A DNA stretch of 64,000 nt from the NCBI GenBank assembly GCA_002347265.1, contig DDYB01000032.1:193389-257388 (forward strand), written 5' to 3'. Under the pieces are notes generated by a model that ran no database searches, had not been told where the DNA came from, and was given only the letters and a program-made list of their open reading frames with translations. Positions 21,366 through 59,248 of the stretch are shown one piece after another. Made by a program: the position numbers and the translations under genes. Within the stretch, counting starts at the first letter, position 1, and the number at the start of each line of letters is the position of its first letter. Source of the DNA: Desulfobacteraceae bacterium UBA2245 (GTDB lineage Bacteria; Desulfobacterota; Desulfobacteria; Desulfobacterales; UBA2245).

Positions 21366-21880
21366 CACCACCGTTATTTTTTCCTTCGGAATCTGTTTTT
21401 TGAATCCCCTTGCGTACCTGTAGCGGGATGAAGCAGCCCGCCTGAATGCCATTGTTGTACGCATTGGTGGTCACTTTTCCATTCACAGGGTCGAAATATT
21501 TGCCTGCATCTGTCAGTACCGAAGCCTGATGTATGCTTTTCTGTCGGAAAGCATTCCAGACATATGATCCTTTCTTCCAAACGGTTCAGAAAAAATTTCT
21601 GAGTATCCCGACCCTATTGGCCCAACAATTAGCCTGATTTCACCAGAGCGTTCAACAGATGATGATTTTTAGTTATTATTGGTAATTTTGGGTAATTAGT
21701 TAACTTTGCATTGACATGAGCAAACATATAAGTTTAAAAAAACACGAATATCGGCATGTATTGATGGCGTGACCGTTGCTATGGCCTTTCAGCCGGATTG
21801 AAAAAAAGCGGCATGTCATCCGTGAATGGGTTTGAACCCGAGACATCCAAACCGAAGAATTTGGTTTGTGGGAGGGAAAA

Positions 21881-23884: not shown

Positions 23885-23911
23885 CGATCAGTTTTCCGGA
23901 GGTTTGTATAC

Positions 23912-25318
23912 GTGAAACCGGTTCTGAATATGGACCGTGTCTCATTCACGTATCCCGGTTCATCCGTTCCCGCCCTCAGCGATCTGTCGTTATCCATGGA
24001 TGCGGGTGAGTGCGTCTGCATCTCGGGGTCTACCGGATGCGGAAAAACCACGTTGCTGATGGCGGTTCAGGGACTGTTGAAAGATGGCGACAGACAGGGT
24101 TCGATTTCCATCCACCCGGTGCTGCCGGGACTGAATTCCGGCATGGTGTTTCAAAATGCGGAAACACAGATCCTGTGCAGCACGGTGGAGGATGAAGCCG
24201 CATTCTGGCCGGAAAATTGCGGAATGTCTGCAGACGACATCCGTTTGGCGGTCGGAGATGCCCTTGATGCGGTGGGGCTGGCGGGACTGCGGAATCGAAA
24301 TGTTGAAGCGCTTTCCGCCGGGCAGAAACATCGTCTGACGATTGCCTCCGTCCTGTCGATGAAGCCGGGTTTGATTCTCATGGATGAACCCTGCGGACAA
24401 CTTGACGCTCCCGGAAAGCGGCAGCTCATCGAGATACTGAACTATCTCAAACAAAGGGGTCATTCCCTGCTGATCGCAGATCATGAACTGGAGCCCTATC
24501 GATCGATTGCCGATCGATTCGTGCTGATGGAAAAAGGGCGCATTCAAAGGATTTCAGGGAAATTTCCTTCAGAGTACGAAATGTCGCGGGTTTTCGAAGG
24601 AATCAGCTCGGATCCGAGCTCCCGGTCATTCGGGCCGCCGGCTGTGGAGATCAGGAATCTTCAGGTAGCCGGGCCGGAAGGGGATCTACTGATTGATCAG
24701 CTGGATCTCACCGTCAGGCGTGGAGAGTTTGTTCATATCTACGGGATAAACGGATCCGGAAAGTCCACCTTTCTCAAGTGCGTCTGCGGATTTGTCCCTC
24801 CTGAATCCGGAATGATCCGGATTGCCGGAATCAATCGCCCCAGGCCCTGGCAGCTTGCGGGCAAGGCGGCCTTGTTGATGCAGAATCCGCAGCGCCAGCT
24901 GTTTGAAGACACTGTGTTTGACGAGGTCGCTTTTGTTTTGAAAATATCGGGGATGAAGGCGGATCAGGTTCGAGAGCGGGTCATGGAGACCCTGGAGGGC
25001 TGCGCCTTGAGCCACCTTGCCGATCGTTCTCCCCTGACCCTGAGCTTCGGCGAACAGCATCGGGTGGCGCTGGCATCCGTGATTGTTTCCGAACCGGAGG
25101 TGCTGCTGCTGGACGAGCCTTTTGCCGGTCTGGACGTTAACCGGCGACGCCAGACCATCCGGCAGATTGAAACGATTTGCCGGGACCGGAAAACGGCCGT
25201 GATAATGGCATCTCACAATCCCTTATACGCCGGGCATGGCGCGGATCAATCTCTGGCTCTGGAACACGGCCGTTTCAGTCCGGCGATTTTCAATAATCAG
25301 GATATGTCTCTTTCATGA
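23912..25318 (+). CDS. ECF-type ABC transporter, fused duplicated ATPase (EcfA-EcfA', CbiO-like)
   Basis: Two full ABC cassettes: GSTGCGKTT/LSAGQKHR/LILMDEP and GINGSGKST/LSFGEQHR/LLLDEP. Confidence 0.88.
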   Translation: MKPVLNMDRVSFTYPGSSVPALSDLSLSMDAGECVCISGSTGCGKTTLLMAVQGLLKDGDRQGSISIHPVLPGLNSGMVFQNAETQILCSTVEDEAAFWPENCGMSADDIRLAVGDALDAVGLAGLRNRNVEALSAGQKHRLTIASVLSMKPGLILMDEPCGQLDAPGKRQLIEILNYLKQRGHSLLIADHELEPYRSIADRFVLMEKGRIQRISGKFPSEYEMSRVFEGISSDPSSRSFGPPAVEIRNLQVAGPEGDLLIDQLDLTVRRGEFVHIYGINGSGKSTFLKCVCGFVPPESGMIRIAGINRPRPWQLAGKAALLMQNPQRQLFEDTVFDEVAFVLKISGMKADQVRERVMETLEGCALSHLADRSPLTLSFGEQHRVALASVIVSEPEVLLLDEPFAGLDVNRRRQTIRQIETICRDRKTAVIMASHNPLYAGHGADQSLALEHGRFSPAIFNNQDMSLS

Positions 25319-26004
25319 GTCTGAGTGCGTTTCAAAGAATCGGCTGGCAGTTCAGCGCTGTTGATTCCAGGCTTCACCGAATCAGCGCGGGCTGGAAAAT
25401 GGCGGGCATGCTCGCGATGTGTTCGGCGGCTTTTGTCGGGAAAAGCTTTCCAGCCCTGCTGGCACTGCTGGTCCTCAATGTCATCGGTTACCGTCTGGGG
25501 CGCGTGAAAGCCGTTGAAATGTGGAGAGACATGCGGTTTTTCATGATCCAGACAATGATCGTGGTAGCGCTGTATGTTCTGCGGGACGGAATTTATGATG
25601 GGGTGCTGCCCGGCCTGCGAACATCTCTTCAGATCCTGCTGTTTTTCATGCCGGGCGCTCTTTTTCTTCGCGTGACCCCGTCTTCCCAGCTGATGAGAAG
25701 TCTGCGCCGCTGGCTGCCGGAGCGGGTCGCATTTTTCGTGTTCATCAGTTTTCGTTTCATTCCGTATTTTGCAAGGGAGATATCCGACATATCCATGGCA
25801 CAGCAGCTTCGGGGCGCTCGAATCGACAAGCATTCCCTGGCCAATCCCCGAAACTGGCCGGGGCTGTTTCACTGCCTGATGGTTCCCCTCATGATACGGG
25901 TCATGAAAACCGCCGAGGATGCGGCGTTGTCGGCAGAGGCCAGAGGCTTTGGAAAAACCGGCCGTTCGCATTCCAGTTTTACAGTTGCGAAGGAGTGTGA
26001 ATGA
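25315..26004 (+). CDS. ECF transporter transmembrane T component (CbiQ/EcfT family)
   Basis: Polytopic protein with the C-terminal coupling motif region ...AQQLRGAR...ALSAEARGFG. It overlaps the ATPase gene by 4 nt. Confidence 0.8.
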   Translation: MSLSAFQRIGWQFSAVDSRLHRISAGWKMAGMLAMCSAAFVGKSFPALLALLVLNVIGYRLGRVKAVEMWRDMRFFMIQTMIVVALYVLRDGIYDGVLPGLRTSLQILLFFMPGALFLRVTPSSQLMRSLRRWLPERVAFFVFISFRFIPYFAREISDISMAQQLRGARIDKHSLANPRNWPGLFHCLMVPLMIRVMKTAEDAALSAEARGFGKTGRSHSSFTVAKECE

Positions 26005-26570
26005 AATCATCCGATGATCATCTGCTGTGGGGAATGTTCAGCCTGCGGGAGGCCCTGTACCTGTCCTTCTGCGCGATTTTTATCGTGATCGCCAAGGCGG
26101 TACTGCGGCTTCACCTGCATGTGACGGGCCACAGCATGGTGTTTACCATGTTTTTTATGATTCTTGCGCGGGGTTGCGTACAGCGCAAAGGCGCAGCAAC
26201 ATTTGTCGGGTTGATCGCCGGCGTCATGTGTCTTGTGTTCGGCATGGGCGCAAAGTCCGGCCCGCTGGTGATTCTCAAGTTTCTTCTGCCGGGAATTGTG
26301 ATCGATGTCGCTGCAATCCTGTACCCTCTGCTTGCCCAGCGCTATGTTGCCTGCATTATCGTCGGGGCGGTCGCTGCGGGCAGCCGGGTGATCATACTCG
26401 GCCTGGTTGATTGGCTTGTCGGCATAGACCGGGAACTGATTTTGCAGCATATGGTTCTTTTGTCCTTTATGAATATGGGGTTCGGTGTGATCGGAGGCGC
26501 CATGGTTCCGCCGGTGGCAAGACGTCTGGCCGCCCACGGCCTGATTCCATCCGCCGGACCGAATCCATGA
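26001..26570 (+). CDS. small polytopic membrane protein, putative ECF substrate-capture (S) component
   Basis: 189 aa with about 5-6 hydrophobic helices, translationally coupled (ATGA overlap) to the T component. No family was recognised. Confidence 0.55.
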   Translation: MKSSDDHLLWGMFSLREALYLSFCAIFIVIAKAVLRLHLHVTGHSMVFTMFFMILARGCVQRKGAATFVGLIAGVMCLVFGMGAKSGPLVILKFLLPGIVIDVAAILYPLLAQRYVACIIVGAVAAGSRVIILGLVDWLVGIDRELILQHMVLLSFMNMGFGVIGGAMVPPVARRLAAHGLIPSAGPNP

Positions 26571-26659: not shown

Positions 26660-27397
26660 ATGAGAGTATTTCTGGGTTTTGACGACACCGACACGATCGA
26701 TGCGGACCGGGGAACCGGCAAGCTGTCCAGGTGGTTCGGGTATGAACTGCCCGAAGAGGTCCGCCTGTGGGCCGTGGTGCGCCAGCAGCTTCTGGTTCAT
26801 GAGGATATACCCTACACCTCCCACAACAGTTCGGCCTGCGTGGTCATGGATGCTCCCGATGGCTATCCTTCGGACCGCATCATCGACCGGGCGGTCCGTC
26901 ATCTCCAAGCTCATTATCTGGAAGGAAGCGATCCGGGAATCTGCATGGCATGCGAGGGTGATCCGGGGCTATCGGAGCTGATGAATTTTGGAATTTCATG
27001 CACCCGGCGCGTGGTCTCTCAAAAAGATGCCCTTCAGGCGACTTCGTGCGGCCATATTCACCTGTCCGGACATGGCGGCACCAATGACGGGATTATTGGG
27101 GCTGCCGCCGCTGTGGGTTTGACGGCATCCGGCTGGGCAGGGCGCTTTATAGAGTTCGGCAGGCTCCGTGAATTTCCGGATCCGGTGACCGTATCGGAAC
27201 TGGAGCAAAAACAAATCCGGGTCATGTCTCTTGAAAAAAATGCAAACCAGCCGTCTCCCGAAGACCGGGTGATGACCCATGGCTGGCTTCGTCCCCGTCT
27301 GATCGGCGGATATCCGGTCGTGATGGTCAAACACATTCAAGAAGGCGTATGGGAAATCGTCAGCGGCAGATCGCACAAAAAGAAATCGGAGGAATGA
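26660..27397 (+). CDS. stand-alone protein resembling the N-terminal kinase (TCKD) domain of archaeal TiaS
   Basis: MRVFLGFDDTDT start, DIPYTSHNSSA and GIIGAAAAVG segments parallel the TiaS motifs recalled from memory (GIDDTDS, NPxIPYKTRGNGA, GLIGALAAVG). Confidence 0.55.
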   Translation: MRVFLGFDDTDTIDADRGTGKLSRWFGYELPEEVRLWAVVRQQLLVHEDIPYTSHNSSACVVMDAPDGYPSDRIIDRAVRHLQAHYLEGSDPGICMACEGDPGLSELMNFGISCTRRVVSQKDALQATSCGHIHLSGHGGTNDGIIGAAAAVGLTASGWAGRFIEFGRLREFPDPVTVSELEQKQIRVMSLEKNANQPSPEDRVMTHGWLRPRLIGGYPVVMVKHIQEGVWEIVSGRSHKKKSEE

Positions 27398-27620: not shown

Positions 27621-27661
27621 ATGCTTTAACAATGCCCGAAAATAACAGGTGGCAGTGGATC

Positions 27662-28000
27662 ATGTCAAAAACACGGATGAATACGCGGGAAGTCGCGGAA
27701 TATTCGATGTCGCCGATAAACAAGGTCTATGCCATAGTCAAATCCAGGCTGTTTCCGGCCACGCGGATAACCGGAAAGCGGCTTTTCCCCAGAAATCTAA
27801 TTGACGAATATGCCCGGTCCGTTTTTTCGGAGTCGAGGCAGAGAAACCGGAATACGGTGCTGGGTCAGAACGCTTTTTTTGAAAAGTCGGTGCAGATTTT
27901 GATGGCGGTTTTCCATGACCCGGCTTTCCGTCCGCGGGTCGTGGGAATGAGCGGCTATGACTTTTCCGATTCCGGACAGATTATTGGTTCTTCCACCTGA
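27662..28000 (+). CDS. excisionase/MerR-like HTH_17 DNA-binding protein
   Basis: MNTREVAEYSMSPINKVYAIVKSRLFPATRITGKRLFPRNLIDEY fits the HTH_17 pattern. The start is ambiguous (27632 or 27662). Confidence 0.55.
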   Translation: MSKTRMNTREVAEYSMSPINKVYAIVKSRLFPATRITGKRLFPRNLIDEYARSVFSESRQRNRNTVLGQNAFFEKSVQILMAVFHDPAFRPRVVGMSGYDFSDSGQIIGSST

Positions 28001-28092
28001 AATCCTCGCTGAAACCAGCGCGTGCCGTTAGCAAAAAGATAACAGGGGACGCATCCAGTTAAAAATTAAACGGAAGAAAGGAGATGTATTCC

Positions 28093-28947
28093 ATGAAAAG
28101 GCTGTTTATTTATCTTTTTATGTTTCTCTGGATAGGGTTTCCAGGAGCGGCAAACGCCCTTGACGGCAGTCAGTTTATTCTTCTGTCCTCAACCATCGGC
28201 CCGATCGATTCCGGCATTGTCGATGTTCTGGAAAACCAGTTTGAAAACGAAACCGGCATCCGGGTGCGCCATGTCGGCGCCGGGACAGGGGCGGCGTTGA
28301 ATATTGCCCGCAAAGGCAGCATCGACCTCGTGATGGTCCATGCCAAATCCCTGGAGGAAAAGTTCATTCAGGAAGGTTTTGGGACCCGGCGAATTCCTCT
28401 GATGTATAACGATTTCGTTCTGGTCGGCCCTGCCTCGGATCCTGCCGGCATACGGGGAATGAAAACAGCCGCGGAAGCGCTTCGCCGGATTTCGGAGAAA
28501 GGCGTCTCCTTTATCAGCCGGGGGGACAAGTCGGGAACGAACGTGGCCGAGATGGAACTCTGGGAAAAGGCGGGGCTCAAGCCCTCCGCGCCCTGGTACG
28601 CCATTTATGAAAAGGGGTCCGAAGGCAATTCCGCCACATTGAAGTATACCAACCAGCAGGAGGGTTATACGGTTATTGACAGGGCCACTTATCTCGCCCT
28701 GAAGGATCAGATTCAACTGGTTATCCTCGTCGAAGGCGACGAAGCCATGCTGAACTACATCAGCCTTATCCCCGTGGATCAGAAAAAATTCAAAACGGTC
28801 AACGCGACCGACACGATGCGTTTTGTGAACTGGCTGACCGACCCGGAAAAGGGACAGGCCGTCATCAAGGGCTTCGGAAAAGATAAATACGGCGCCCCCC
28901 TGTTCTTTCCCAATTCGGAAGACTGGCAAAAAACTAAAGGAAAATAG
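28093..28947 (+). CDS. TupA-family periplasmic oxyanion-binding protein, divergent paralog
   Basis: Signal peptide and SRGDKSGTN and NDFVLVGP motifs shared with TupA, but SSTIGPIDSG replaces the TTTSTQDSG anion-binding loop. Confidence 0.8.
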   Translation: MKRLFIYLFMFLWIGFPGAANALDGSQFILLSSTIGPIDSGIVDVLENQFENETGIRVRHVGAGTGAALNIARKGSIDLVMVHAKSLEEKFIQEGFGTRRIPLMYNDFVLVGPASDPAGIRGMKTAAEALRRISEKGVSFISRGDKSGTNVAEMELWEKAGLKPSAPWYAIYEKGSEGNSATLKYTNQQEGYTVIDRATYLALKDQIQLVILVEGDEAMLNYISLIPVDQKKFKTVNATDTMRFVNWLTDPEKGQAVIKGFGKDKYGAPLFFPNSEDWQKTKGK

Positions 28948-29068
28948 CATATTGTCAATCTGTCATGCTCAATTCGACGCCAAAAAGGTGCGAACACTCT
29001 GCCCTTTAGAGGTATTTTTTGACCAATTTATTTGAATGGATCACAAAAATTTATTAAGGAGAATGAAA

Positions 29069-29956
29069 ATGAAGCTCAAAAAGTTAGCAACCTGTTTCCG
29101 CTGTCTGGGATTTTTTGCACTCCTTTGCCTGATCACCGGTCTGGCAACCGCGCCGGCTGCTTTTGCGGCTGAACCGGCGCAGAAAAACATTATTCTGGCC
29201 ACTACGACCAGCACTCAGGATTCCGGCCTTCTGGACGCCCTGATTCCGATTTTCGAAAAGGAAACCGGTTATTTTGTCAAAACGATCGCCGTCGGTTCCG
29301 GTCAGGCCATGGCCATGGGAGAGAAGGGCGAAGCAGATGTCCTGCTGGTCCACTCCCCTGCCGCGGAAAAAAAATTTATGGAAGCGCAAAACGGGATCAA
29401 CCGCCGCCTGGTCATGCACAATGACTTCGTGATCGTCGGTCCTCCCGCCGATCCTGCCGGCATCAAGGGCTCCAAGACTTCTCCGGAAGCTTTTATGAAG
29501 ATTGCCAATACCGGCAACCTGTTTCTTTCACGGGGCGACAACTCAGGAACGCATTCCAAGGAAAAGGGAATCTGGAAAGCCGCCGGGCTTAACCCGGAAG
29601 AGCAGCCTTCGAAGTGGTATCAGCAGACCGGACAGGGCATGGGCCAGACCCTCAATGTCGCGGCCGAGAAACTGGGCTATACCCTCACCGACAGGGGAAC
29701 CTGGCTTGCCCTGCAGAAAAACCTCGGGCTTCCCATTCTCATGGAGGGCGATCCGCTCCTGCTGAACATCTATCACGTGATCGATGTCAATCCGGCCAAG
29801 TGGCCGAAAGTCAATGCACCCGGCGCCCGTGCTTTTTCCGACTTCATGGTTTCGCCCGCGACCCAGAGCATCATCAAAACCTTTGGCGTGGACAAGTACG
29901 GTTCTCCTCTGTTTTTCCCGGATGCGGACAAGAAAGTGGAGGACCTTGGAAAATAA
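29069..29956 (+). CDS. tupA: tungstate ABC transporter substrate-binding protein
   Basis: Signal peptide, canonical ATTTSTQDSG, SRGDNSGTH, HNDFVIVGP. AAGGAG RBS 7 nt upstream. Confidence 0.88.
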   Translation: MKLKKLATCFRCLGFFALLCLITGLATAPAAFAAEPAQKNIILATTTSTQDSGLLDALIPIFEKETGYFVKTIAVGSGQAMAMGEKGEADVLLVHSPAAEKKFMEAQNGINRRLVMHNDFVIVGPPADPAGIKGSKTSPEAFMKIANTGNLFLSRGDNSGTHSKEKGIWKAAGLNPEEQPSKWYQQTGQGMGQTLNVAAEKLGYTLTDRGTWLALQKNLGLPILMEGDPLLLNIYHVIDVNPAKWPKVNAPGARAFSDFMVSPATQSIIKTFGVDKYGSPLFFPDADKKVEDLGK

Positions 29957-30655
29957 ATGGAACTGATTCTTGAAGGCATCCTGAAGGCCATAGCGCTGCT
30001 TGTTTCCCTGGATCCGGAAGTCCTGGGAATCACTGCGCTCTCCCTGAAAATTTCAGGAACAGCCACCCTGATCAGTCTTTTTCTCGGCGTTTCAACGGGA
30101 ACCGTGGTGGCCCTCACCCGGTTCCCGGGCCGGAAACTAGTGGTCAGCCTGATCAATACCGGCATGGGGCTGCCGCCGGTGGTGGTGGGTCTCTTTGTCA
30201 CGATCTTCCTGTGGCGAAACGGGCCGTTGGGCTTTCTGCAAATCCTCTACACGCCCACGGCGATTATTCTTGCCCAGGCGATCATTGCCACCCCCATCAT
30301 CAGCGGAATCAGCCTGGCCGCAATGCAGAACCTTCCCGCCAACCTGCGTCTTCAGATCCTGGCACTCGGGGCTACCCGAATTCAGATGTTCTGGCTTCTC
30401 ATTCGGGAAGCCCGTCTGCCCCTGCTGGCCGCCGTCATGGCCGGATTCGGCGGGATCATTTCCGAGGTGGGGGCCTCCATCATGGTGGGCGGCAATATCA
30501 AGGGCTATTCACGGGTTCTCACCACAGCCACGGTCATGGAAACGGGACGGGGAAACTTTGACGTGGCCATTGCGCTGAGCGCCATTCTCTTGCTGCTGGC
30601 CTTTCTGATCAACTTTCTGCTGACACGGATCCAGCAGCGGGAGCGTCCCCGATGA
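29957..30655 (+). CDS. tupB: tungstate ABC transporter permease
   Basis: Binding-protein-dependent permease fold, immediately after tupA. Confidence 0.88.
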   Translation: MELILEGILKAIALLVSLDPEVLGITALSLKISGTATLISLFLGVSTGTVVALTRFPGRKLVVSLINTGMGLPPVVVGLFVTIFLWRNGPLGFLQILYTPTAIILAQAIIATPIISGISLAAMQNLPANLRLQILALGATRIQMFWLLIREARLPLLAAVMAGFGGIISEVGASIMVGGNIKGYSRVLTTATVMETGRGNFDVAIALSAILLLLAFLINFLLTRIQQRERPR

Positions 30656-31752
30656 CGGCCGCCGGTCCCCTTCTTCAGGTCAAAAATATCGTGGTGAAGC
30701 GGGGCGGAATTCCCGTTCTGGATATCCCCGACTTCAGGATCGAGCGGGGGGAGGTTCTGTCCCTGCTCGGACCGAACGGCTCCGGGAAATCCACGCTGCT
30801 TCTGACCTTGTCCAGCCTGTTGAAGCTGCACCAGGGCAAACTGATCTTCAAGGGCCGGGAGATTGACGGCCGCCGGAGCGAGCTGGACTATCGACGGCAG
30901 ATTGCCGTTGTATTTCAGGACCCGCTTCTTTTGGATACGACGGTGCTGGACAACGTGGCCTCCGGCTTGAAAATCCGGGGAATGGAAAAGGCGGGCCGTT
31001 TGCGGATCGCGGCGGAATACCTGGAACGCCTGGGAATCGCCCATCTGGCCAAACGATCCGCATCCAAACTCTCCGGTGGAGAGGCCCAGAGAACCAGTAT
31101 CGCCCGGGCCTTTGCGACCCGCCCGGCCATTCTTTATCTCGACGAACCCTTTTCCGCTCTGGATCCGCCCACGCGCGAAGCTTTGATCTCGGATCTCACC
31201 CGCATCCTCCGTGAAACGGACACCACGGCGGCCATTGCCACGCACGATCAGATGGAGGCCATGCGCCTTTCCGACCGCATGGCCGTTATCCAGCAGGGAA
31301 AGATCGCCCAGGCGGGCTCCGCGGAAGAGGTGATGAATCATCCGGTCAATGAATTTGTCGCCTCCTTTGTCGGAATGGACACGGTCCTGACCGGCAGGGT
31401 CCTGGAAAACCATAACAAGCACAGAATGATGATTGCCGTCGGCGATCGGGAGATCGAGGCCGTGGGGAATTTCCCTCCGGGAGAGCAGGTCCTGTGTTGC
31501 ATTCGTCCCGAAAACGTAACTCTCTCCACGGATTCACCCGAAGAACATAGCAGCGCCCGAAACAATTTTTCGGGCCGGATTGTGCGCATCGCACCCCACG
31601 GGCTTTTCTACCGCGTTGATCTTGACTGCGGTTTTGAGCTCATCTCCTACATCACCCGCATATCGCTGGACAGCCTGGCGCTCCGGGAAGGCCGGAAAGT
31701 CAAGGCCTCCTTCAAGGCCACCGCCGTCCATGTGATACGGAAATCGACATGA
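30652..31752 (+). CDS. tupC: tungstate ABC transporter ATP-binding protein with C-terminal TOBE domain
   Basis: GPNGSGKST, LSGGEAQR, LYLDEP, then a SARNNFSGRIV... TOBE-type tail. Confidence 0.88.
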   Translation: MTAAGPLLQVKNIVVKRGGIPVLDIPDFRIERGEVLSLLGPNGSGKSTLLLTLSSLLKLHQGKLIFKGREIDGRRSELDYRRQIAVVFQDPLLLDTTVLDNVASGLKIRGMEKAGRLRIAAEYLERLGIAHLAKRSASKLSGGEAQRTSIARAFATRPAILYLDEPFSALDPPTREALISDLTRILRETDTTAAIATHDQMEAMRLSDRMAVIQQGKIAQAGSAEEVMNHPVNEFVASFVGMDTVLTGRVLENHNKHRMMIAVGDREIEAVGNFPPGEQVLCCIRPENVTLSTDSPEEHSSARNNFSGRIVRIAPHGLFYRVDLDCGFELISYITRISLDSLALREGRKVKASFKATAVHVIRKST

Positions 31753-31800: not shown

Positions 31801-32016
31801 ATGGCAGGTAGAATTTTTTACCGGGAACGCCGGAAGGTCGCCGAAGGGGAAAAGAAGCCGCGGTTCACTCTGGTCGCCGTAACGGGTGTTGATCTCACCT
31901 TCTATCCGAAACACATGCGCAAACAGGAACTGGAACAGATTGCCGAAGCGGTTGGGGCGGAATTGATTCTGCTGAAAGACGGCGAAAAAGGCGAGGAAGT
32001 GGAAGTCACGGAATAG
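31801..32016 (+). CDS. small conserved basic protein, paralog B (71 aa), unknown family
   Basis: AAGGAGG RBS 7 nt upstream. Paralog of 20611..20814. Tightly packed between tupC and the MoSto-like gene. Confidence 0.78.
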   Translation: MAGRIFYRERRKVAEGEKKPRFTLVAVTGVDLTFYPKHMRKQELEQIAEAVGAELILLKDGEKGEEVEVTE

Positions 32017-32032: not shown

Positions 32033-32863
32033 ATGGGACTTTGGCGCGAAAGGGACGGACGACGTCTGCATGTAAAGAGTAAACTGATGGGGGAAAGTCT
32101 GATCAGCAAATCGTTTATGGAAAGTTTCACTGTTGCTCCGCAACGGAGGCTTTTCCCGGATGTGAACATTATCAAGATCGGAGGTCAATCCATCTGTGAC
32201 CGGGGCGTCAAGGCCCTTCCCCCGATAATTGAAGAAATTGTGGCGAACAAGAAAGAGCACAAGATGCTCATCACAACAGGAGGCGGGACCCGCAGCCGGC
32301 ATATTTATTCCATTGGCCTGGAACTGGGCATGCCGACGGGCATCATTGCCAAATTCGGCAGCTCCATCTCGGAACAGAATGCGCTGCTGGTGTCCACACT
32401 GCTGTCTTCCTGGGGCGGAATCAAGATCGGACATGATGAGGTCATCAAACTGTCAACCTACTTCGCTCAGGGCTGCATCCCCGTCATGCACGGGATGCCT
32501 CCCTATGATTATTTCGCTTTGCCGGCAAAAGGATGGCGCATCCCCATTCACCGAACGGATGTAGGCACCCTGATTCTGGCGGACCTGATCGGAGCACGCA
32601 ACTGTATCTATGTAAAGGATGAAGAGGGGCTGTATACGGATGATCCCAAAAAGAATTCCGATGCCGAATTCGTCCCCGAAATCAGCGCGTCGGAACTTCT
32701 GGCACAGGACTTTGACGATTTGATCATTGAACGGCCCTGCCTTGAGATTCTGCAGAACAGCGAGGTTATCGACAGCATTCAGATTGTCAACGGCCAGCAT
32801 GCGGGCAACATCACCCGGGCATTGAAGGGCGAACATGTGGGAACCATAATTCATAAAGGATAG
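32033..32863 (+). CDS. molybdenum storage protein (MoSto, MosA/MosB)-like amino-acid-kinase-family protein
   Basis: The amino acid kinase fold (IIKIGGQS, LITTGGGTRSRH) and the C-terminal GEHVGTIIHKG closely parallel the Azotobacter MosB sequence as recalled (GEHVGTLIRTG). GGAGGGAG RBS. Confidence 0.78.
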   Translation: MGLWRERDGRRLHVKSKLMGESLISKSFMESFTVAPQRRLFPDVNIIKIGGQSICDRGVKALPPIIEEIVANKKEHKMLITTGGGTRSRHIYSIGLELGMPTGIIAKFGSSISEQNALLVSTLLSSWGGIKIGHDEVIKLSTYFAQGCIPVMHGMPPYDYFALPAKGWRIPIHRTDVGTLILADLIGARNCIYVKDEEGLYTDDPKKNSDAEFVPEISASELLAQDFDDLIIERPCLEILQNSEVIDSIQIVNGQHAGNITRALKGEHVGTIIHKG

Positions 32864-33096
32864 CGCATCTCTCTGCAAATAGCTCTGCGACATCTACAGC
32901 GATCAAACGGTCAGATGAAGTAAAAATACAACCTGATGGGAAAAAGCCCATCAGGTCATGCAAAGTCACTGACGAGCCCAACCCGGAGGTCGCTGTACCG
33001 CGTAATTGCTAATAACCCATTGCATTATAACGCAATTCATACCGCCTTAATTGCGCTCAACCCTTCAAATTCAGTTCAAAAACAGATTCGAAGCTC

Positions 33097-33117
33097 AACC
33101 GGCTCAGCCGGTTTTTT
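33097..33117 (+). terminator. rho-independent terminator
   Basis: AACCGGC-tca-GCCGGTT followed by a T-run (GTTTTTTG). It lies about 235 nt after the MoSto-like stop codon. Confidence 0.6.
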
Positions 33118-33189
33118 GACGGCTGTCGGCATGTGCATCAGCAATGACGGTGTGACCGCCGCAATCGAAATGCGATAATGATTCACGAA

Positions 33190-34335
33190 TTACAGCTCGG
33201 CGATGATTTTGCCCGTGACGGCGGCCTCGTAGCCGGGAATCGCATCGATCTCTCTGCGCAGGGCCGCGGACTGGAGGACGTCCAGAAGGATTTTGACCGT
33301 GGGGTGACCGATCAAGTCGCCAGGAATGACTAGGTCGCACCGGACAGCCGTGATGGGAACGAAATCCAGGCTGAAAGCTTCGGCAATGGCCCTTAATCCC
33401 AGGGCGGCATCGGCCACGCTGCAGGCAACGCGGTAGGCGCCTTCGCGGTGGGAGGTCACTTCGTTACGATATCCACTGATGGCAGTTGTATTCACACCGG
33501 CGCTTTGCAGACAGTCGTCCAGCAGAATCCGCAGGGCCGCGCCCGGCTCACGGTTGACAAAACGAACCATGGGTCTGGCGAGATCGATAACGGAATGAAT
33601 GCCCAGAGGATTGCCCCTGGCCACCATCAAGCCCTCCTCCAGAAGCGAAAATCCCAGAATGCTTCCGTGTACTCCCGCCAGTTTCTGGCTGGCCAGGACC
33701 ACATTGGACTCCGTTTTGCCCGTGTTGTGCAGATGGATTCCGGCCACATGGGTCAAGCCTTCGGCCAGAGCGTTGAGAGCGCGATGAGTTGAGGCGAACC
33801 GGCAGTGTACGCGCGCGTCGGGCGCCATACGGGAAACGTAATGGGCGAGGATCTCAAAGGCCGGATCACAGCCCATCAGAATGAGGGTCTTATCGAGACA
33901 GCGCGAATGTGAAAAGATCTGCGCGCTTTTTCCGTCCCGGGTCAACAAGCCGTCCGCCGGGCGCAGGCCGAATCCAACGGACTCAGGACCCTGCAGAGAA
34001 ATACCCACCAGTCGATCACGGACCATCCCCAAAGCCAGCCGGGATGATGGCGCCTTTTGACCGTTGATTACATGAACTGGCCGCGTGTTTGGGGGTTCCT
34101 GTTCGGTGAACAGATCTTCCACCCGGCATTCGAAAATGCGGGCCAGACGAAGCGCGATGGCGGTATTGGGCAGATATCGCCCGGATTCAATGTCGTAAAT
34201 CGCCTGGCGCCGAACGTCGATTTCCTCGGCCAGCTTTTCCTGAGACCATCCCCTGGCCAGGCGGAATTGCTTGACCTTGCACGTAATGGCGTTGCTTTGT
34301 CGGGTCATAGGCCTTTTCTGTTCAAGTTTTGTCAT
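33190..34335 (-). CDS. XRE-family HTH regulator fused to a PBP-like (molybdate/tungstate-binding-type, PF12727-like) sensor domain
   Basis: N-terminal RLARGWSQEKLAEEIDVRRQAIYDIESG HTH. The C-terminal 250 aa follow the PBP_like pattern (GCDPA..., VAGIHL, VNREPGAALRILLD, ADAALGLRAIAEAF). Confidence 0.75.
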   Translation of the reverse strand: MTKLEQKRPMTRQSNAITCKVKQFRLARGWSQEKLAEEIDVRRQAIYDIESGRYLPNTAIALRLARIFECRVEDLFTEQEPPNTRPVHVINGQKAPSSRLALGMVRDRLVGISLQGPESVGFGLRPADGLLTRDGKSAQIFSHSRCLDKTLILMGCDPAFEILAHYVSRMAPDARVHCRFASTHRALNALAEGLTHVAGIHLHNTGKTESNVVLASQKLAGVHGSILGFSLLEEGLMVARGNPLGIHSVIDLARPMVRFVNREPGAALRILLDDCLQSAGVNTTAISGYRNEVTSHREGAYRVACSVADAALGLRAIAEAFSLDFVPITAVRCDLVIPGDLIGHPTVKILLDVLQSAALRREIDAIPGYEAAVTGKIIAEL

Positions 34336-34562
34336 TCCCCTGAGAAAATTTTATTGACCAATTTCATATCGTATGCAATGAGTTTCTGTCAAATGACAAT
34401 TAAAAACGTCATAATTGCATAAATTATACTTCAAACATTATATGATGTTGTTTTGGTCCAAATTGCAACAGCAGTTTTCAAGCGGTCAGCCCGAATGGCA
34501 TCGATCATCGAAACAGACGCCGCATGCCATTCAGACTGCCTCAAGGGAGAAATTCACAGGAA

Positions 34563-35288
34563 ATGAACGATATTTACAATGAATTGAAGCGGAGAGCGGC
34601 AAATGTTCTGGCGGCCCATCATCTGCTCGGAGAGAAGGTAGCTGTCAAAGCCCGAGCATTAAGCCCGACAGAGGCTATCGGAAATCCGGAAGCGGATGAT
34701 TTTCCGATTCAGAAAGGCAAGGAACGATTGATGCAGGCGGACATTCGGGGCGCTTTGGGCCAGGCGTTCACCGATCAATTTGGTGATTTTGAGGGAACTC
34801 TGGAAGAAATTCTGTCCGCCGAGCTGAACAGCAATTACCGCCGGGCAATTTTTGTGGCTGCATTGAACGCAGCTTTGCGTCATCTCAAGTTGATCAACGG
34901 CACCGTTCACTGCCGTGACGAGGAACCCAGACAGTGTGCCGAAGCGCTGGCGGATCATATTCAGAACCGCCATGGGAATGTAAAAATTGTCCAGATCGGC
35001 TTTCAGCCGAGAATGATAGAGTCTCTGTCTTCCCGGTTCACGATGCGGGTTCTGGATATGGACCGGGACAATATCGGCTCCCGCAAGTGCGGCGCCCTGA
35101 TCGAATCTCCCGAGGCCGCGGAAAAGGCCTTGGCCTGGGCCGACCTGCTGCTGGTGACCGGAACGACGCTTGTTAACGGCACCCTGCCGGCCTTTGTGGG
35201 TTCAAAGCCGGTACTCTTTTACGGAACCACCATTGCCGGGGCGGCTCACCTGATGGGGTGGGAGCGTTTTTGTCCGCGCAGCGCCTGA
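34563..35288 (+). CDS. DUF364/DUF4213-type putative heavy-metal chelation protein
   Basis: N-terminal enolase-N-like and C-terminal Rossmann-like pattern (VKIVQIGFQP..., DLLLVTGTTLVNGTL), directly upstream of modA. Confidence 0.65.
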   Translation: MNDIYNELKRRAANVLAAHHLLGEKVAVKARALSPTEAIGNPEADDFPIQKGKERLMQADIRGALGQAFTDQFGDFEGTLEEILSAELNSNYRRAIFVAALNAALRHLKLINGTVHCRDEEPRQCAEALADHIQNRHGNVKIVQIGFQPRMIESLSSRFTMRVLDMDRDNIGSRKCGALIESPEAAEKALAWADLLLVTGTTLVNGTLPAFVGSKPVLFYGTTIAGAAHLMGWERFCPRSA

Positions 35289-35445: not shown

Positions 35446-36246
35446 ATGAAATTTAAGAAACGTTTGTTATCTTTGTTGGCAGGGATGTTGCTGGTGCTGA
35501 CCGGCTTGGGGATGGATGCTTTCATCGGGAGCGGGGCTGTTGCGGAAACCGAGCTGCTCGTATTTGCCGCAGCCTCAACTACCGATGTCATCACCGAAAT
35601 CGGAGATCTGTATATGACCCGGGATCTAGGGCGCGTCAAGCCCTCATTTGCCTCATCATCCACGCTGGCCAAGCAGATTGCCAGCGGAGCGCCGGCCGAT
35701 ATTTTTCTTTCGGCCAATCCAAAGTGGATGGACTTTCTTGAAGAAAAAAATTTGCTGTTCAAAGAGACTCGATTCGATCTTCTGGGCAACCGGATTGTGC
35801 TGATTGCTCCGGCGGACAGTGCGTTGGGGCAGATCGATGTGGCGCCCGGACTTTCTCTGGCTGATCTTCTGGGAAAGGACGGGCGGCTGTCCACGGGTGA
35901 TCCGGACCATGTGCCGGCCGGCATGTACGGGAAAGAAGCGCTGCAGAACCTCGGCGTCTGGGATCAGGTCAAGGATCGTCTGGCCCCGATGAAAGATGTT
36001 CGAGCGGCCCTGGTCCTGGTGGAGCGCGGGGAAGCGCCCCTGGGACTGGTTTATGCCACCGATGCCGTTGTTTCCAAGAAGGTTCGCGTGGTCGGCACTT
36101 TCCCGGCCGACAGCCATCCGCCGATCGTTTATCCCGTGGCTGCGGTGTCCGGCGGGAAGACCTCCGAGGCCAGGCAGTTTATGGAGTTTCTGAAATCTCC
36201 GGAAGCTCGCGCGATTTTTGAAAAATATGGTTTTGAAGTGCGTTGA
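35446..36246 (+). CDS. modA: molybdate ABC transporter substrate-binding protein
   Basis: Signal peptide, VFAAAST, typical ModA length and sequence. Confidence 0.9.
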   Translation: MKFKKRLLSLLAGMLLVLTGLGMDAFIGSGAVAETELLVFAAASTTDVITEIGDLYMTRDLGRVKPSFASSSTLAKQIASGAPADIFLSANPKWMDFLEEKNLLFKETRFDLLGNRIVLIAPADSALGQIDVAPGLSLADLLGKDGRLSTGDPDHVPAGMYGKEALQNLGVWDQVKDRLAPMKDVRAALVLVERGEAPLGLVYATDAVVSKKVRVVGTFPADSHPPIVYPVAAVSGGKTSEARQFMEFLKSPEARAIFEKYGFEVR

Positions 36247-36944
36247 TGGACTTTTTTCGCCTGACATCGATGGAACTGGAAGCCCTGAGGCTGAGCCTGT
36301 GGGTGTCCGTTTGGGCCGTGGCCGCCAGTCTGCCCTTTGGCATTCTGGCGGCCTGGGTTCTGGCGCGCCTGCGTTTTCCCGGCAAAAGTCTTCTGGACGG
36401 CCTGGTGCATCTGCCGCTGGTATTGCCGCCGGTAGTGATGGGCTATGTGCTGCTGGTGATGCTCGGCCGCAACGGAGTCATCGGCGCGTTGTTGTATAAG
36501 TATCTGGGCGTTGTTTTCGCGTTTAACTGGAAAGGGGCTGCACTGGCCGCTGCTGTCATGGCATTTCCTTTGCTGGTCCGAGCGGTTCGACTGTCTCTTG
36601 AAGGAGTGGACTCCGGACTGGAAGCTGCAGCGCGTACTTTAGGGGCCGGTCCGGTGCGTGTATTTTTTACGGTCACGCTTCCCCTGATGGCGCCGGGAAT
36701 CATTACCGGCGTCATTCTTGCCTTTGCGCGCAGCCTGGGTGAATTCGGCGCCACCATCACCTTTGTATCCAACATTCAGGGACAAACCCAGACCCTGCCG
36801 CTGGCTCTTTACACCCTGACCCAGGTTCCGGACGGCGAAATGGGCGCCATGCGGTTATGTATTATTTCGATGCTGATCGCCATGGCGGCGCTGGTATGTT
36901 CTGAAATTCTGGCCCGGCGTTTTGCCGCCCGCTTGAAAGGATGA
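36243..36944 (+). CDS. modB: molybdate ABC transporter permease
   Basis: ARSLGEFGATITFVSNIQGQTQTLPLALY ModB signature. Confidence 0.92.
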   Translation: MMDFFRLTSMELEALRLSLWVSVWAVAASLPFGILAAWVLARLRFPGKSLLDGLVHLPLVLPPVVMGYVLLVMLGRNGVIGALLYKYLGVVFAFNWKGAALAAAVMAFPLLVRAVRLSLEGVDSGLEAAARTLGAGPVRVFFTVTLPLMAPGIITGVILAFARSLGEFGATITFVSNIQGQTQTLPLALYTLTQVPDGEMGAMRLCIISMLIAMAALVCSEILARRFAARLKG

Positions 36945-36950
36945 TTCGTT

Positions 36951-38066
36951 TTGGAGATCAGCGTGAGGCGCAAACAGGGAAATTTCGGGATCGATGCCTC
37001 TTTTCATGGGGCTGAATCGGGAGTGACCGCACTTTATGGTCCGTCAGGCGCCGGAAAAACATCAATCGTCAATATGGTGGCCGGTTTGACGCGACCCGAT
37101 GCCGGTCGCATCGCCATCAACGGTCTTTGTCTGTTTGATTCGGCCCAGCGCATCGATCTGCCGCCGGAAAAGCGTCGCATCGGCTATATTTTTCAGGACG
37201 GCCGTCTGCTGCCCCACCTTTCGGTGCGTTCCAACCTGAACTTCGGAATGCACCGGACGCCGGCAGGCCGGCGTTTTGTACATTTTGACCAGGTTGTGGA
37301 TCTTCTCGGCATCGGCCATCTGCTCCATCGCCGGCCGGCCAAACTTTCCGGCGGCGAGAAACAGCGCGTGGCCATCGGACGGGCTCTGTTGACCAGCCCG
37401 GCCATGCTGCTCATGGACGAGCCTCTGGCCTCCCTGGACTCAGCCCGAAAGGCCGAGGTGCTGCCCTTTATCATGCGTTTGGGCCGTGAGTTTTCCATTC
37501 CCATTCTCTACGTCAGTCATGCCATGGATGAAATACTCAATCTGGCGACTCATATGGCAATAATGGAAGAAGGCCGCGTCCTGGCCTGCGGAAACATAGA
37601 GGATCTTTTGTCCCGCTCGGACCTGCAGACCTTTTTCGGAAGAACGGAAATCGGAACGGTGATTTCAACAGTGGCCGAGAATCCGAAAGATTCCTTCGGT
37701 CTGGCCCACCTGCGTTTTGGCGGCAGAATTCTGAAAGTGCAGGGCATTCAGGCAGCCCCGGGCGCCCTGGTGCGGGTGCGCATTCCGGCCAGTCATGTTG
37801 CGATTGCGCTGAAAGCGCCCGAACAGACCAGCCTGCAGAACATTTTCCCCGGAATAATTTGCGAGATACTGGATCAGGGTGCACATTTCGTGGAAGTGCG
37901 TCTGGACATCGGGTGCGCTCTTTGGGCCCGTATCACCCGCCAATCCTGCTTGAATCTGGATCTGAAGCCAGGTCTGCCCGTTTTTGCATTGATCAAGAGC
38001 GTTGCGGTTTCTCTGGGCGCATCCACCCGAATTGGAACACCGGACTTCATGACATCCTGTTTGTAG
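36951..38066 (+). CDS. modC: molybdate ABC transporter ATP-binding protein with TOBE domain
   Basis: GPSGAGKTS, LSGGEKQR, LLMDEP, C-terminal TOBE-like region. Confidence 0.9.
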   Translation: MEISVRRKQGNFGIDASFHGAESGVTALYGPSGAGKTSIVNMVAGLTRPDAGRIAINGLCLFDSAQRIDLPPEKRRIGYIFQDGRLLPHLSVRSNLNFGMHRTPAGRRFVHFDQVVDLLGIGHLLHRRPAKLSGGEKQRVAIGRALLTSPAMLLMDEPLASLDSARKAEVLPFIMRLGREFSIPILYVSHAMDEILNLATHMAIMEEGRVLACGNIEDLLSRSDLQTFFGRTEIGTVISTVAENPKDSFGLAHLRFGGRILKVQGIQAAPGALVRVRIPASHVAIALKAPEQTSLQNIFPGIICEILDQGAHFVEVRLDIGCALWARITRQSCLNLDLKPGLPVFALIKSVAVSLGASTRIGTPDFMTSCL

Positions 38067-38353
38067 CCGGGTGTTTGAGAAATAAGATTCAAACCTTTCT
38101 CGGACACAATTCGCATTGGATGCAATGCTTCCGAATGCATTGATTTTCCGCTATCCCCCATCAATCGATTCCTGATTTCCCATCCTGTTTTTTATTATGT
38201 TTTTTATTGACATCGAGGGATTGTATGGTATTTAACTGTGCCTTATATGACATATATCAGGATCGGCATATTGAGACTTTTTCAAGCCGTAAAATATATT
38301 TTGTACCGTGATGAAATGAATCGGTAATAAACATATTGCGAAAGGAGTTTCCA

Positions 38354-40027
38354 ATGTTTAACGGCAATACCCGCATGATTTCGGAAAATCATCAAATCGG
38401 TTCGTATTCCTTTGAAGATTATATGGATCTGGTCAAATCATTTCACGGGTATGCTGCGCCCGGCGTTATCATTGGAGGCTTCATGGTCGATCTGGCGCTG
38501 AAAAATCTTCCGGACGGAGAGTTTTTCGATGCCGTCTGTGAAACAACCGCATGCCTGCCGGACGCCATTCAACTGCTGACGCCCTGCACGCTTGGCAACG
38601 GCTGGCTCAAGGTTTACGACTTCAACCGGTATGCGCTGACCATGTACAACAAGGAGAATGGAAAGGGCGTGAGAGTTGCTCTGAGCACTTCGGCGGTTCG
38701 CGTCTGGCCCGATATCAACAATTGGTTTTTCAAGCTTAAAACCAAGAAGGAACAGGACCCGCAGCGACTGAACGAGGCGATCAAGAATGCAGGCCATAGC
38801 ATATGCAAGATGGAGCAGGTCGAGGTGAATTCCGAGGTACTGAAGCGCAAATCCAGAGGAGGCGTCGCCGTTTGCGCCATATGCGGGGAATCCTTTCGAA
38901 CGAACGGGGGAACCGTCTGCCGTGCCTGTCATGGAGAGATGTATTACCGGACTTCCGTCGGGGCCGCTCAGATTTTGAATGCGCCCAGTATGCCTGCGCT
39001 CAAATCCACACCGGTCGAACAGGCCGTGGGGCTTGCCGCACTTCATGACATGACGGAAATCATTCCCGGCAAGCTGAAGAAACCTGTTTTTAAGCGGGGA
39101 CAGGAGCTCTCCATCGGAGATGTCTGCCACCTGCAGCGGATGGGAAAAAATCATGTTTATCTGAGTCAGGAAAATCCGGTCGGAGATGAATGGGTCAACG
39201 AGGATCAGGCGGCAATAGCCTTTGCCGCGGCCATGACAGGGCCGGGCGTTGCCGTCGGCGGCAAGCCCAGCGAAGGTAAGGTGAATCTGGAAGCGACCCT
39301 GGACGGGCTTCTGGTGGTTGAAGTCGAGCAGTTGAAACGGTTTAATCTGGTTCCGGAAGTCATTTGCGGATGCCTGAAAAACTTCACGCAGGTTTCCAAG
39401 GGCCAGAAGTTTGCGGCGACCCGTGCCATTCCTTTGTTCATGCGGCGGGAAAATCATACCCGGGCCCTGGATGTTCTGACTGAAAAGCCGCTGTTTAAAG
39501 TCCTTCCCATGCGCAAGGCTTCCGTCGGCCTGCTGGTGACCGGCGAGGAGGTGGCCAAGGGGTTGGTGGAGGACAGATTCATTCCGATCCTGGAAAAGAA
39601 GCTCAAACGCTATGACTGCCGGATTGTCGGAAAGGAAATTGTTCCCGACGACCGCGGAAAAATTTCATCCGCCGTGACCCGCATGATTCAAGCCGGCGCC
39701 GATATGGTGATCGCAACGGCGGGAATGTCGGTGGATCCGGATGATTGTACGCGCCAGGGAATCATCGATGCAGGCGCCTCCCAGATTCTTTACGGCGCTC
39801 CGATTGTTCCCGGCGCCATGATTATGCTGGCCCAGATCGACTCGGTTCAGGTTTTTGGCGTTCCGGCATGCGCCCTGTATTTCGATGTCACCAGCTTCGA
39901 TCTCCTCCTGCCCCGGCTTCTGGCGGGCGTTCCTGTCACAAGGGAAGATCTGGCTCAGATGGGACACGGGTCTTTCTGTCAGGAATGCAAGGTCTGTGTT
40001 TTTCCCCGTTGTTCCGTCGGCAGATAA
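38354..40027 (+). CDS. fusion protein: FmdE-like domain + zinc ribbon + MoeA-like/MoCF-biosynthesis (molybdopterin-binding) domain
   Basis: N-terminus FHGYAAPGVIIGG...CLPDAIQLLTPCTLGNG (FmdE pattern) and CAICGE...CRAC. C-terminal half has an MoeA-like start (TPVEQAVGLAALHDM) and an MoCF domain (GLLVTGEEV...ADMVIATAGMSVDPDD). Confidence 0.7.
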   Translation: MFNGNTRMISENHQIGSYSFEDYMDLVKSFHGYAAPGVIIGGFMVDLALKNLPDGEFFDAVCETTACLPDAIQLLTPCTLGNGWLKVYDFNRYALTMYNKENGKGVRVALSTSAVRVWPDINNWFFKLKTKKEQDPQRLNEAIKNAGHSICKMEQVEVNSEVLKRKSRGGVAVCAICGESFRTNGGTVCRACHGEMYYRTSVGAAQILNAPSMPALKSTPVEQAVGLAALHDMTEIIPGKLKKPVFKRGQELSIGDVCHLQRMGKNHVYLSQENPVGDEWVNEDQAAIAFAAAMTGPGVAVGGKPSEGKVNLEATLDGLLVVEVEQLKRFNLVPEVICGCLKNFTQVSKGQKFAATRAIPLFMRRENHTRALDVLTEKPLFKVLPMRKASVGLLVTGEEVAKGLVEDRFIPILEKKLKRYDCRIVGKEIVPDDRGKISSAVTRMIQAGADMVIATAGMSVDPDDCTRQGIIDAGASQILYGAPIVPGAMIMLAQIDSVQVFGVPACALYFDVTSFDLLLPRLLAGVPVTREDLAQMGHGSFCQECKVCVFPRCSVGR

Positions 40028-59247: not shown

Positions 59248-59248
59248 T

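Follow-up and report, generated by a model that had tools for sequence, protein, structure and literature searches.

A third clade of the molybdenum storage protein superfamily in anaerobes, encoded by a single gene beside a conserved 71-residue protein

A 64-kb stretch of the genome of Desulfobacteraceae bacterium UBA2245 (GenBank assembly GCA_002347265.1, contig DDYB01000032.1, positions 193,389 to 257,388; the whole 64,000 nucleotides are hereafter called the window) carries a gene for a member of the molybdenum storage protein (MoSto) superfamily. The protein belongs to a third clade of this superfamily, separate from those of the two subunits, MosA (alpha) and MosB (beta), of the Azotobacter vinelandii storage protein, and across related genomes its gene almost always stands directly behind a short open reading frame (ORF) for a basic protein. 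Judged from sequence comparison, the two proteins most likely form an ATP-driven store or delivery device for tungsten (W) or molybdenum (Mo) oxyanions, made of one beta-type subunit and the small protein. The elements at the centre of the analysis are:

31801..32016, + strand: basic partner protein of 71 amino acids (aa), ~7 kDa; its stop codon lies 16 nt before the MoSto-like start, and a 48-nt gap follows the tup genes upstream
32033..32863, + strand: MoSto-superfamily protein of 276 aa with an ATG start; single-gene, beta-like clade
32928..32959, no strand: hairpin with a 13-bp palindrome, just 3' of the MoSto-like stop codon
~33096-33120: hairpin with a T-run, downstream of the MoSto-like gene

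Placement and distribution of the MoSto-like protein

A 276-aa ORF with an amino-acid-kinase fold had been proposed at 32033-32863 in an earlier reading of this DNA from its letters alone (the sequence-only reading). The ORF is exact, and its product matches the Pfam AA_kinase domain at E=1.8e-23. A Shine-Dalgarno-like element, GGAGGGAG, lies 6 nt before the ATG, and the position of the start codon is common to close homologs. The two hairpins 3' of the gene indicate a likely operon end. The exact window protein is also encoded on contigs of methanogenic alkane-degrading enrichment metagenomes.

A phmmer search against all PDB sequences returned A. vinelandii MosB as the top match (E=1e-69, 238 bits, residues 15-273 against 9-267), with MosA at E=6e-49 and the best uridine monophosphate (UMP) kinase at 6e-8. 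Homology to MosB (PDB 2OGX_B, 4F6T_B and 6GU5_B) is full-length; the two proteins share the kinase-fold motifs and the segment GMPPY, and the window protein likewise has an N-terminal extension that is not present in UMP kinase. The C-terminus, from which membership of the MosA/MosB family had been proposed, does align: ALKGEHVGTII in the window protein corresponds to ALAGEHVGTII in MosB and ALRGEHVGTLI in MosA. The UMP kinase PyrH carries a weaker GEKEGTLI at this place, so the motif by itself is not diagnostic of MoSto.

Family placement was assessed with a neighbour-joining tree (200 bootstraps, E. coli PyrH as outgroup) that included full-length representatives, the A. vinelandii and Azospirillum MosA and MosB proteins, and 11 proteins from related loci. 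The MoSto superfamily was monophyletic against PyrH with 100% bootstrap support, and the window protein fell into a third clade (100%), apart from the MosA clade (100%) and the MosB clade (94-100%). Deep nodes of the MoSto tree reached bootstrap values of only 10-40%, too low to place the single-gene form before or after the alpha/beta split. Pairwise identities were 44.8% between the window protein and MosB, 36.0% between the window protein and MosA, 42.7% between MosA and MosB, and 19% between the window protein and E. coli PyrH. Tree and identities together indicate that the window protein is a member of the MoSto superfamily and an orthologue of neither MosA nor MosB. The comparison with MosA, MosB and PyrH had been set beforehand as a check, and it placed the protein with MoSto and not with the UMP kinases; the proposed homology to the MosA/MosB family was therefore borne out, whereas identity with either subunit was not.

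We give almost no credence to the reading that the gene encodes an ordinary UMP kinase, or another enzyme of the amino-acid-kinase fold, mis-assigned to MoSto. The AA_kinase domain and the name 'uridine kinase' given by NCBI to many homologs would fit it, and the window protein shares with PyrH the fold, the catalytic Lys, the Gly loops and the Asp scaffold. However, it scored only 58.9 bits against TIGR02076 (pyrH_arch, cutoff 158.05) and 33.3 bits against TIGR02075 (pyrH_bact, cutoff 243.9), and none of the NCBIfam PyrH, IPK and Asp-kinase models matched it at its curated cutoff. Its identity of 19% to E. coli PyrH compares with 45% to MosB, it has two marks of MoSto that PyrH does not show, a deletion behind KIGGQ and the insertion with GMPPY, and its gene context is one of Mo/W homeostasis, not of nucleotide metabolism.

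A protein search of 1.84 billion cluster representatives recovered 474 proteins at E<1e-10, of which 69 reached E<1e-30. For each GTDB species one genome was then scanned with the pattern KIGG[QR]S[IV]xDR and an 8-sequence alignment, which gave at least 593 confirmed stretches in species-representative genomes; all locus counts below refer to the best 80 of these. These 80 share 68-95% identity with the window protein, come from 80 separate genome records and all belong to the window clade. All are from anaerobes, in agreement with the anaerobe-type context that had been read from the sequence. The clade is present in Syntrophales (including the complete genome of Syntrophus buswellii DM-2), Smithella and Syntrophorhabdus, and in Desulfobacterales and Desulfobulbales (Desulfonema magnum, Desulfosarcina alkanivorans and the Desulfocapsaceae/Desulfofustis/Desulfopila group); four Coriobacteriia bins, one Synergistaceae bin and one Vecturithrix bin are further members among the best 80. 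Many of the host organisms depend on W/Mo formate dehydrogenases and aldehyde oxidoreductases.

Database names of the homologs are 'uridine kinase' or 'molybdenum storage protein (subunit beta)', the latter indicating that automatic annotation had already picked up the homology. Our literature search found no paper linking MoSto with syntrophs or other anaerobes. MoSto was said in 2019 to have no known homologs (PMC6448029) and was called a feature of 'some N2-fixing organisms' in 2025 (PMC11980592), and in the literature at large it figures as an oddity confined to a handful of nitrogen-fixing aerobes. What is new here is a MoSto branch that is common in strict anaerobes and has a different make-up, one shell gene and a conserved small protein. 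Another architecture within the superfamily is represented by a 732-aa protein (P0130), in which a MoSto-like C-terminal part of 270 residues (43% identity) is fused to an N-terminal region of ~460 aa with a start that looks hydrophobic.

Conservation within the clade points to a nucleotide-handling subunit of the beta type. The segment GMPPY is invariant in 81 of 81 clade members and corresponds to G148-M149-P-P-Y of MosB; MosA has AFPPY instead, and PyrH is without the segment. Its Met is Met155 in the window protein. According to what Bruenle et al. are said to have described in PNAS in 2019, the hydrolysed ATP sits in the beta subunit, and Met-beta149 reportedly acts as a gate that is displaced on molybdate entry. 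The phosphoryl-transfer scaffold is kept as well: Lys48 in KIGGQS, the TGGGTRSRH loop, HRTDVG, VKDEEGLY..DP and NG. Residues K48, G50-G51, T82-G85, R87/R89/H90, R174/D176/G178 and D196/G199 are invariant (alignment A2) and align with their PyrH equivalents, and 125 of the 276 positions are conserved at ≥95% across phyla.

Compared with MosA (PDB 2OGX_A), to which it is 36% identical, the window protein is without Glu129, His140 and His156-158, while sharing the His at the alpha-130 position. With GMPPY and the scaffold kept and the alpha ligands gone, the window protein looks like a working beta-type subunit devoid of alpha-type cluster anchors. Compared with MosB, it stands in a separate clade, without an adjacent alpha partner, and comes from strict anaerobes. 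Residues scored as invariant and specific to the window clade are Cys55, Cys236, Tyr143, Asp159 and His134, the last of which, present in 75 of the 81 members, matches the His at alpha-130 of MosA. Cys55 directly follows the KIGGQS phosphate loop; Cys55 and Cys236 are invariant in the clade at ≥68% identity and do not occur in MosA, MosB or relatives of the Syntrophobacter and P0123 types.

The single gene and its small partner

That only one such gene is present had been noted from the sequence, and tblastn with the 276-aa protein agreed: no second MoSto copy was detected in the 64-kb window, nor a second MoSto-like gene within 8 kb at any of the 80 related loci. The adjacent mosA and mosB pair of canonical (alpha-beta)3 MoSto was thus not found in these 64 kb.

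The small protein, by contrast with any second subunit, is nearly always there. A homolog of the 71-aa ORF lies directly upstream on the same strand at 79 of the 80 loci, with 51-94% identity (tblastn), and the median gap from its stop to the MoSto-like gene is ~23 nt in related loci against 16 nt in the window. At the sole exception (L053), a TOBE-type ATP-binding cassette (ABC) ATPase and then a 180-nt gap precede the MoSto-like gene. Linkage to transport and enzyme genes was far less regular: TupA was found at 16-19 loci, TupB at 17-24, ModA at 11-12 and FdhA at 11-12. The conserved unit is therefore the small ORF with the MoSto-like gene, not the tungstate transporter tupABC with MoSto. 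Attachment to tupABC, which the sequence-only reading had taken as the defining feature, turned out to be facultative (TupA/TupB at ~16-24 of 80 loci); its attention to the small protein was well placed, this being the most conserved neighbour and present in an archaeon too.

The pairing outlasts rearrangement. In Syntrophobacter fumaroxidans (CP000478.1) and at a second locus of this kind (L092), the small-protein homolog is convergent with a 49%-identical MoSto-like gene, and a gene for the molybdate transporter MOT1 adjoins. In Methanocorpusculum, a 75-aa homolog (hidden Markov model (HMM) E=7e-22) lies 18 nt upstream of a lone MoSto-like gene whose product is only 38% identical. Conversely, a six-frame HMM search detected no small-protein homolog at three multi-paralog loci: the Azospirillum mosB-mosA locus (L087), a tandem MoSto pair (L096) and a tandem triplet beside tupABC (L097). 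The association of a single gene with the small protein, and of several genes with its absence, is clean within this sample, although the multi-paralog loci in it are few (three lineages). The window clade differs from Azospirillum-type mosBA loci in this respect as well, the 71-aa partner being present in the one and not in the other.

The triplet (L097:5001-7562) encodes three tandem MoSto paralogs of 283, 268 and 296 aa, with GMPPY only in the middle one, followed by a CbiQ-like protein and tupABC. It is possibly a three-subunit MoSto variant in another lineage.

These data also bear on the idea that the protein is part of an ordinary heteromeric MoSto, with the gene for the other subunit at a distant site in the genome and the small ORF encoding an unrelated accessory or regulatory protein. 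The search span (±8 kb per homolog, 64 kb at the window) leaves room for such a gene, and in other MoSto clades two or three paralogs do stand in tandem. Yet paralogs are adjacent wherever they were seen, and adjacent in none of the 80 loci of the window clade; in Bacteria and Archaea alike, the small protein goes with the single-gene state; and the best 80 matches are 80 different genome records. We regard this arrangement as improbable.

The small protein has a conserved core, MxGKIFYRERxKV..(E)KKPRFxLVAV...HLRKxELExIA...GAELVxL, and a variable C-terminal tail, acidic in the Syntrophales proteins and basic in those of Desulfobulbales. Arg8, Arg10, Lys12, Pro20, Arg21, His38 and Arg40 show no variation across 33 aligned members and recur in the Syntrophobacter and Methanocorpusculum homologs. 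Searches of Pfam and NCBIfam placed the protein in no family; 16 of the 33 members matched Pfam DUF5609 below threshold (best E=0.003). Its AlphaFold model, of moderate confidence (predicted local distance difference test score (pLDDT) 68), has a beta-beta-alpha-beta topology, for which Foldseek against the PDB gave at best E=0.11 with a template modelling score (TM)<0.45, and a profile search against PDB sequences at best E=0.14.

Two candidate identities for the small protein were rejected. In size it resembles the Mop/Tub molbindins, ~70-aa TOBE proteins that form hexamers holding 8 molybdate or tungstate ions (Eubacterium limosum Tub, PMC11980592), and these offer a functional analogy as W/Mo stores in the cytoplasm of anaerobes with a link to TupABC (PMC11980592). 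However, TOBE (PF03459) matched 0 of the 33 members even at E≤10, no similarity to molbindins was detectable, and molbindins are ATP-independent and of low capacity. The protein was also considered as a relic of a second MoSto subunit, since its beta-loop-alpha-beta topology recalls the N-terminal part of the kinase fold; alignment of the two families with hhalign gave a probability of 2.8%.

A candidate store for tungstate or molybdate

With somewhat more belief than doubt, we take the window protein to form, as its nucleotide-binding subunit, the shell of a MoSto-type device for tungstate or molybdate, with the small protein as its partner. Six identical beta-type subunits would assemble into a hexameric cage resembling that of UMP kinase, and for a MoSto made from one gene the PyrH homohexamer, a trimer of dimers, is the probable template. 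Every subunit would spend ATP on moving tungstate or molybdate into the cage, the role proposed for MosB, and the metal would be held there as a polyoxometalate or smaller oligomer. The basic 71-aa protein, with its invariant R8, R10, K12, R21, H38 and R40, would be a stoichiometric partner that stands in for the missing alpha subunit, either by contributing cluster-binding or nucleating residues or as a lid over the ATP site or groove.

The operon position behind tupAABC suggests tungstate as the main substrate in this organism, and tungsten enzymes such as the neighbouring selenocysteine-containing formate dehydrogenase (FDH) are likely consumers; neither this substrate nor this consumer is a family-wide rule. 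Like the sequence-only reading, we infer tungsten storage, a homomeric state and the feeding of FDH from sequence. Canonical (alpha-beta)3 MoSto loads ~100 Mo/W atoms with ATP, as polyoxometalate clusters in a closed cage. The MoSto of A. vinelandii uses ATP to store not only Mo but also W (PMC6448029, PMC4504029).

Several observations weigh against this interpretation. In A. vinelandii MoSto, His156 and Glu129 bind a Mo8 cluster covalently, and three symmetry-related histidines hold a W3 cluster on the threefold axis (PMC4504029). By sequence, these cluster ligands are residues of the alpha subunit (E129, H140 and H156-158), present in MosA and not in MosB, the threefold-axis histidine being assigned to alpha His140 by our own mapping. 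All three are replaced in the window clade: Glu129 by Gly, Ser, Asp or Ala, His140 by Tyr in 81 of 81 members and His156 by Asp in 79 of 81. The cluster chemistry, if any, must therefore differ from that of A. vinelandii MoSto. In addition, the paralog searches covered the 64 kb of the window and ±8 kb around its relatives, so that a distant second paralog may exist; recognisable Mo/W genes lie within 6-8 kb at just ~1/4 to 1/3 of the related loci; tup genes occur at only ~20-30% of loci, which means that W specificity is no property of the family as a whole; and the small-protein model, as given above, is of moderate confidence.

The main alternative, which would fit the loss of the covalent ligands, is a device that activates or delivers oxyanions and does not store them. 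Here the beta-type protein would run a 'molybdate kinase' half-reaction, in which molybdate or tungstate attacks the ATP gamma-phosphate, and W or Mo would be handed to cofactor synthesis (MoeA, FmdE-MoCF), or W told from Mo, without large clusters; the small protein and a TCKD-like protein encoded nearby would serve as carrier and accessory. Besides the absence of every alpha-type covalent cluster ligand, such a role would suit the FmdE-MoCF_biosynth fusions found nearby at 10 of the 80 loci, the co-inheritance of a second ATP-using protein, the TCKD-like one, at 45 of 80, and the invariant clade-specific Cys55 beside the phosphoryl-transfer loop. Against it, conservation runs over the full length of the protein, including the N-terminal arm region RLHVKSxLMGESL and the cage-wall segment GMPPY, as expected if the cage architecture is retained. 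Most of the Mo stored in A. vinelandii, moreover, is in clusters that van der Waals contacts and hydrogen bonds keep in place without covalent attachment (PMC4504029), so that losing the covalent ligands does not preclude storage. We consider delivery without storage rather unlikely.

A broader version of the storage interpretation is one that we can entertain, although we lean against it in full. Under it, strict anaerobes, among them syntrophs, sulfate reducers, Coriobacteriia and some methanogens, would share an unrecognised high-capacity W/Mo store: an ATP-driven, homo-oligomeric beta-type cage in which a 7-kDa protein of new fold provides the interior chemistry or the lid, often with a TiaS-type kinase as helper. 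This would be an ancestral-style single-subunit MoSto and the first ATP-dependent tungsten store.

If metal is stored, the module would account for the buffering of scarce tungsten by syntrophs and sulfate reducers, would show a polyoxometalate cage working without an alpha subunit, and would provide a simpler two-gene module for metal-storage engineering. The first physiologically defined tungsten store, reported in 2025, is the TOBE protein Tub (PMC11980592). The 71-aa protein and the stand-alone TCKD-like protein, each the type of a family without known function, gain a Mo/W-related context. The module occurs in cultured strains (Syntrophus buswellii, Syntrophobacter fumaroxidans, Desulfonema magnum, Desulfosarcina alkanivorans and Methanocorpusculum), which makes it directly testable.

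The surrounding Mo/W gene island and the TCKD-like protein

The pair lies within an island of genes for Mo/W transport, regulation and use. Its layout is as the sequence-only reading described it, with two tupA-like genes, tupB and tupC, the 71-aa ORF and then the MoSto-like gene. The other features of the island are:

21866..26570, + strand: TonB-dependent receptor and energy-coupling factor (ECF)-type importer (fused double ABC ATPase, CbiQ/EcfT, putative S component), immediately 5' of the TCKD-like gene
26660..27397, + strand: TiaS-TCKD-like stand-alone protein of 245 aa; the tup genes lie between this gene and the small ORF/MoSto-like pair
27632-28000, + strand: 122-aa ORF with a sub-threshold helix-turn-helix (HTH) match, HTH_17 (23.2 against 27 bits)
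28084..28947, + strand: divergent TupA-like periplasmic oxyanion-binding protein with a signal peptide; SSTIG replaces TTTS; NF041772 170.9 bits against a cutoff of 400
29036..29956, + strand: TupA-like tungstate-binding protein with the TTTS motif (ATTTSTQDSG); NF041772 242.6 bits against a cutoff of 400
29957..30655, + strand: TupB-like ABC permease; NCBIfam TupB 154 against a cutoff of 320
30652..31752, + strand: TupC/WtpC-like ABC ATPase with a C-terminal TOBE domain
33190..34335, - strand: XRE-HTH and PBP_like (PF12727) regulator, putatively Mo/W-responsive and of TunR type; convergent with the MoSto-like gene
34524..35288, + strand: DUF364 'putative heavy-metal chelation' protein
35446..38066, + strand: modA-modB-modC, molybdate ABC transporter
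38336..40027, + strand: fusion of FmdE, a zinc finger and MoCF_biosynth (MoaB/MogA/MoeA-type); recurs at 10 of 80 loci and at L092
40605..45427, - strand: fdhE-like gene, fdhB and selenocysteine fdhA
45427-42371, - strand: FdhA, alpha subunit of a periplasmic formate dehydrogenase, with the twin-arginine signal MDVTRRVFMK...

We take the TTTS motif to be a mark of TupA. The tandem TupA-like pair with TTTS in one copy and SSTIG in the other is repeated at several loci (e.g. L093), which suggests two differing specificities. The 122-aa ORF stands where relatives have a TunR-type HTH_17+PBP_like regulator of ~300 aa upstream of tupA, and it may be a truncated form of that regulator. The TonB receptor and the ECF importer could be an uptake route for chelated metal. 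Recurrence of the FmdE-MoCF fusion near the MoSto-like cassette suggests a dedicated W/Mo insertion factor.

A W/Se formate dehydrogenase had been named in the sequence-only reading as the enzyme to be supplied. The gene is real, and its in-frame TGA at 44861-44863 (codon 189, DHQARI-U-HSATV), at which ORF callers break fdhA into two, indicates selenocysteine in FdhA. Whether the enzyme uses W or Mo is not readable from the sequence, however, and FdhA is linked at just the 11-12 loci counted above. No nif genes were found in the 64-kb window, where housekeeping genes flank the Mo/W island, and a control by a molybdenum- or tungsten-cofactor (Moco/Tuco) riboswitch or other RNA was discarded, no Rfam family reaching its gathering score in the window. 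Outside the island, an 805-aa ORF at 51284-53701 (+) has no Pfam or NCBIfam match, and a 328-aa ORF at 59189-60175 (+) has no Pfam match.

Neighbourhoods elsewhere in the clade are drawn from the same repertoire. MOT1 occurs at 8 of the 80 loci, TunR-type HTH_17+PBP_like regulators at 9, relatives of the window's XRE-HTH and PBP_like regulator at 9-11, DUF364/DUF4213 at 8, the FmdE-MoCF fusion at 10 and a tungsten-type aldehyde:ferredoxin oxidoreductase (AOR) at 4. Some loci carry modABC, MOT1 or no recognised transporter in place of tup.

Unbiased clustering of neighbouring ORFs brought out the TCKD-like protein as a third recurrent partner: its family, of ~247 aa, accompanies the pair at the 45 loci mentioned above, typically immediately 5' of the small ORF, and is also found 5' of a 56%-identical MoSto-like gene. 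The family comprises 2851 homologs, some of them named 'TiaS' or 'DUF1743'. The AlphaFold2 model of the 245-aa protein (pLDDT 88) matched TiaS (5xob/3amt) in Foldseek at E=1.4e-8 with probability 1.0, over ~160 of the 402-420 TiaS residues and at 22-24% identity; the Pfam TCKD match is sub-threshold (E=0.028). With the ATP-using Thr18-cytidine kinase domain (TCKD) of archaeal TiaS (PDB 3AMT, 5XOB) it shares the fold and the N-terminal motif GxDDTD. In contrast to TiaS, it is bacterial and stand-alone, has a C-terminal beta domain of its own, and contains none of the other TiaS domains searched for (tRNA-binding FLD, OB and zinc-ribbon).

Further copies of the TCKD-like gene were located at L067:6999-7742, L089:5001-5798 and L091-L094. 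Sampled from this side, they stand consistently beside Mo/W transport genes, whether a MoSto-like gene is present or not. The order is tunR-tupABC-TCKD at L094 and MOT1-TCKD-PadR-small-MoSto at L089 and L092, while L093 has a complete operon, tunR-tupAABC-TCKD-small-MoSto. At L091, an unrelated contig, the TonB receptor, the TCKD-like gene and the ECF importer occur together as they do in the window.

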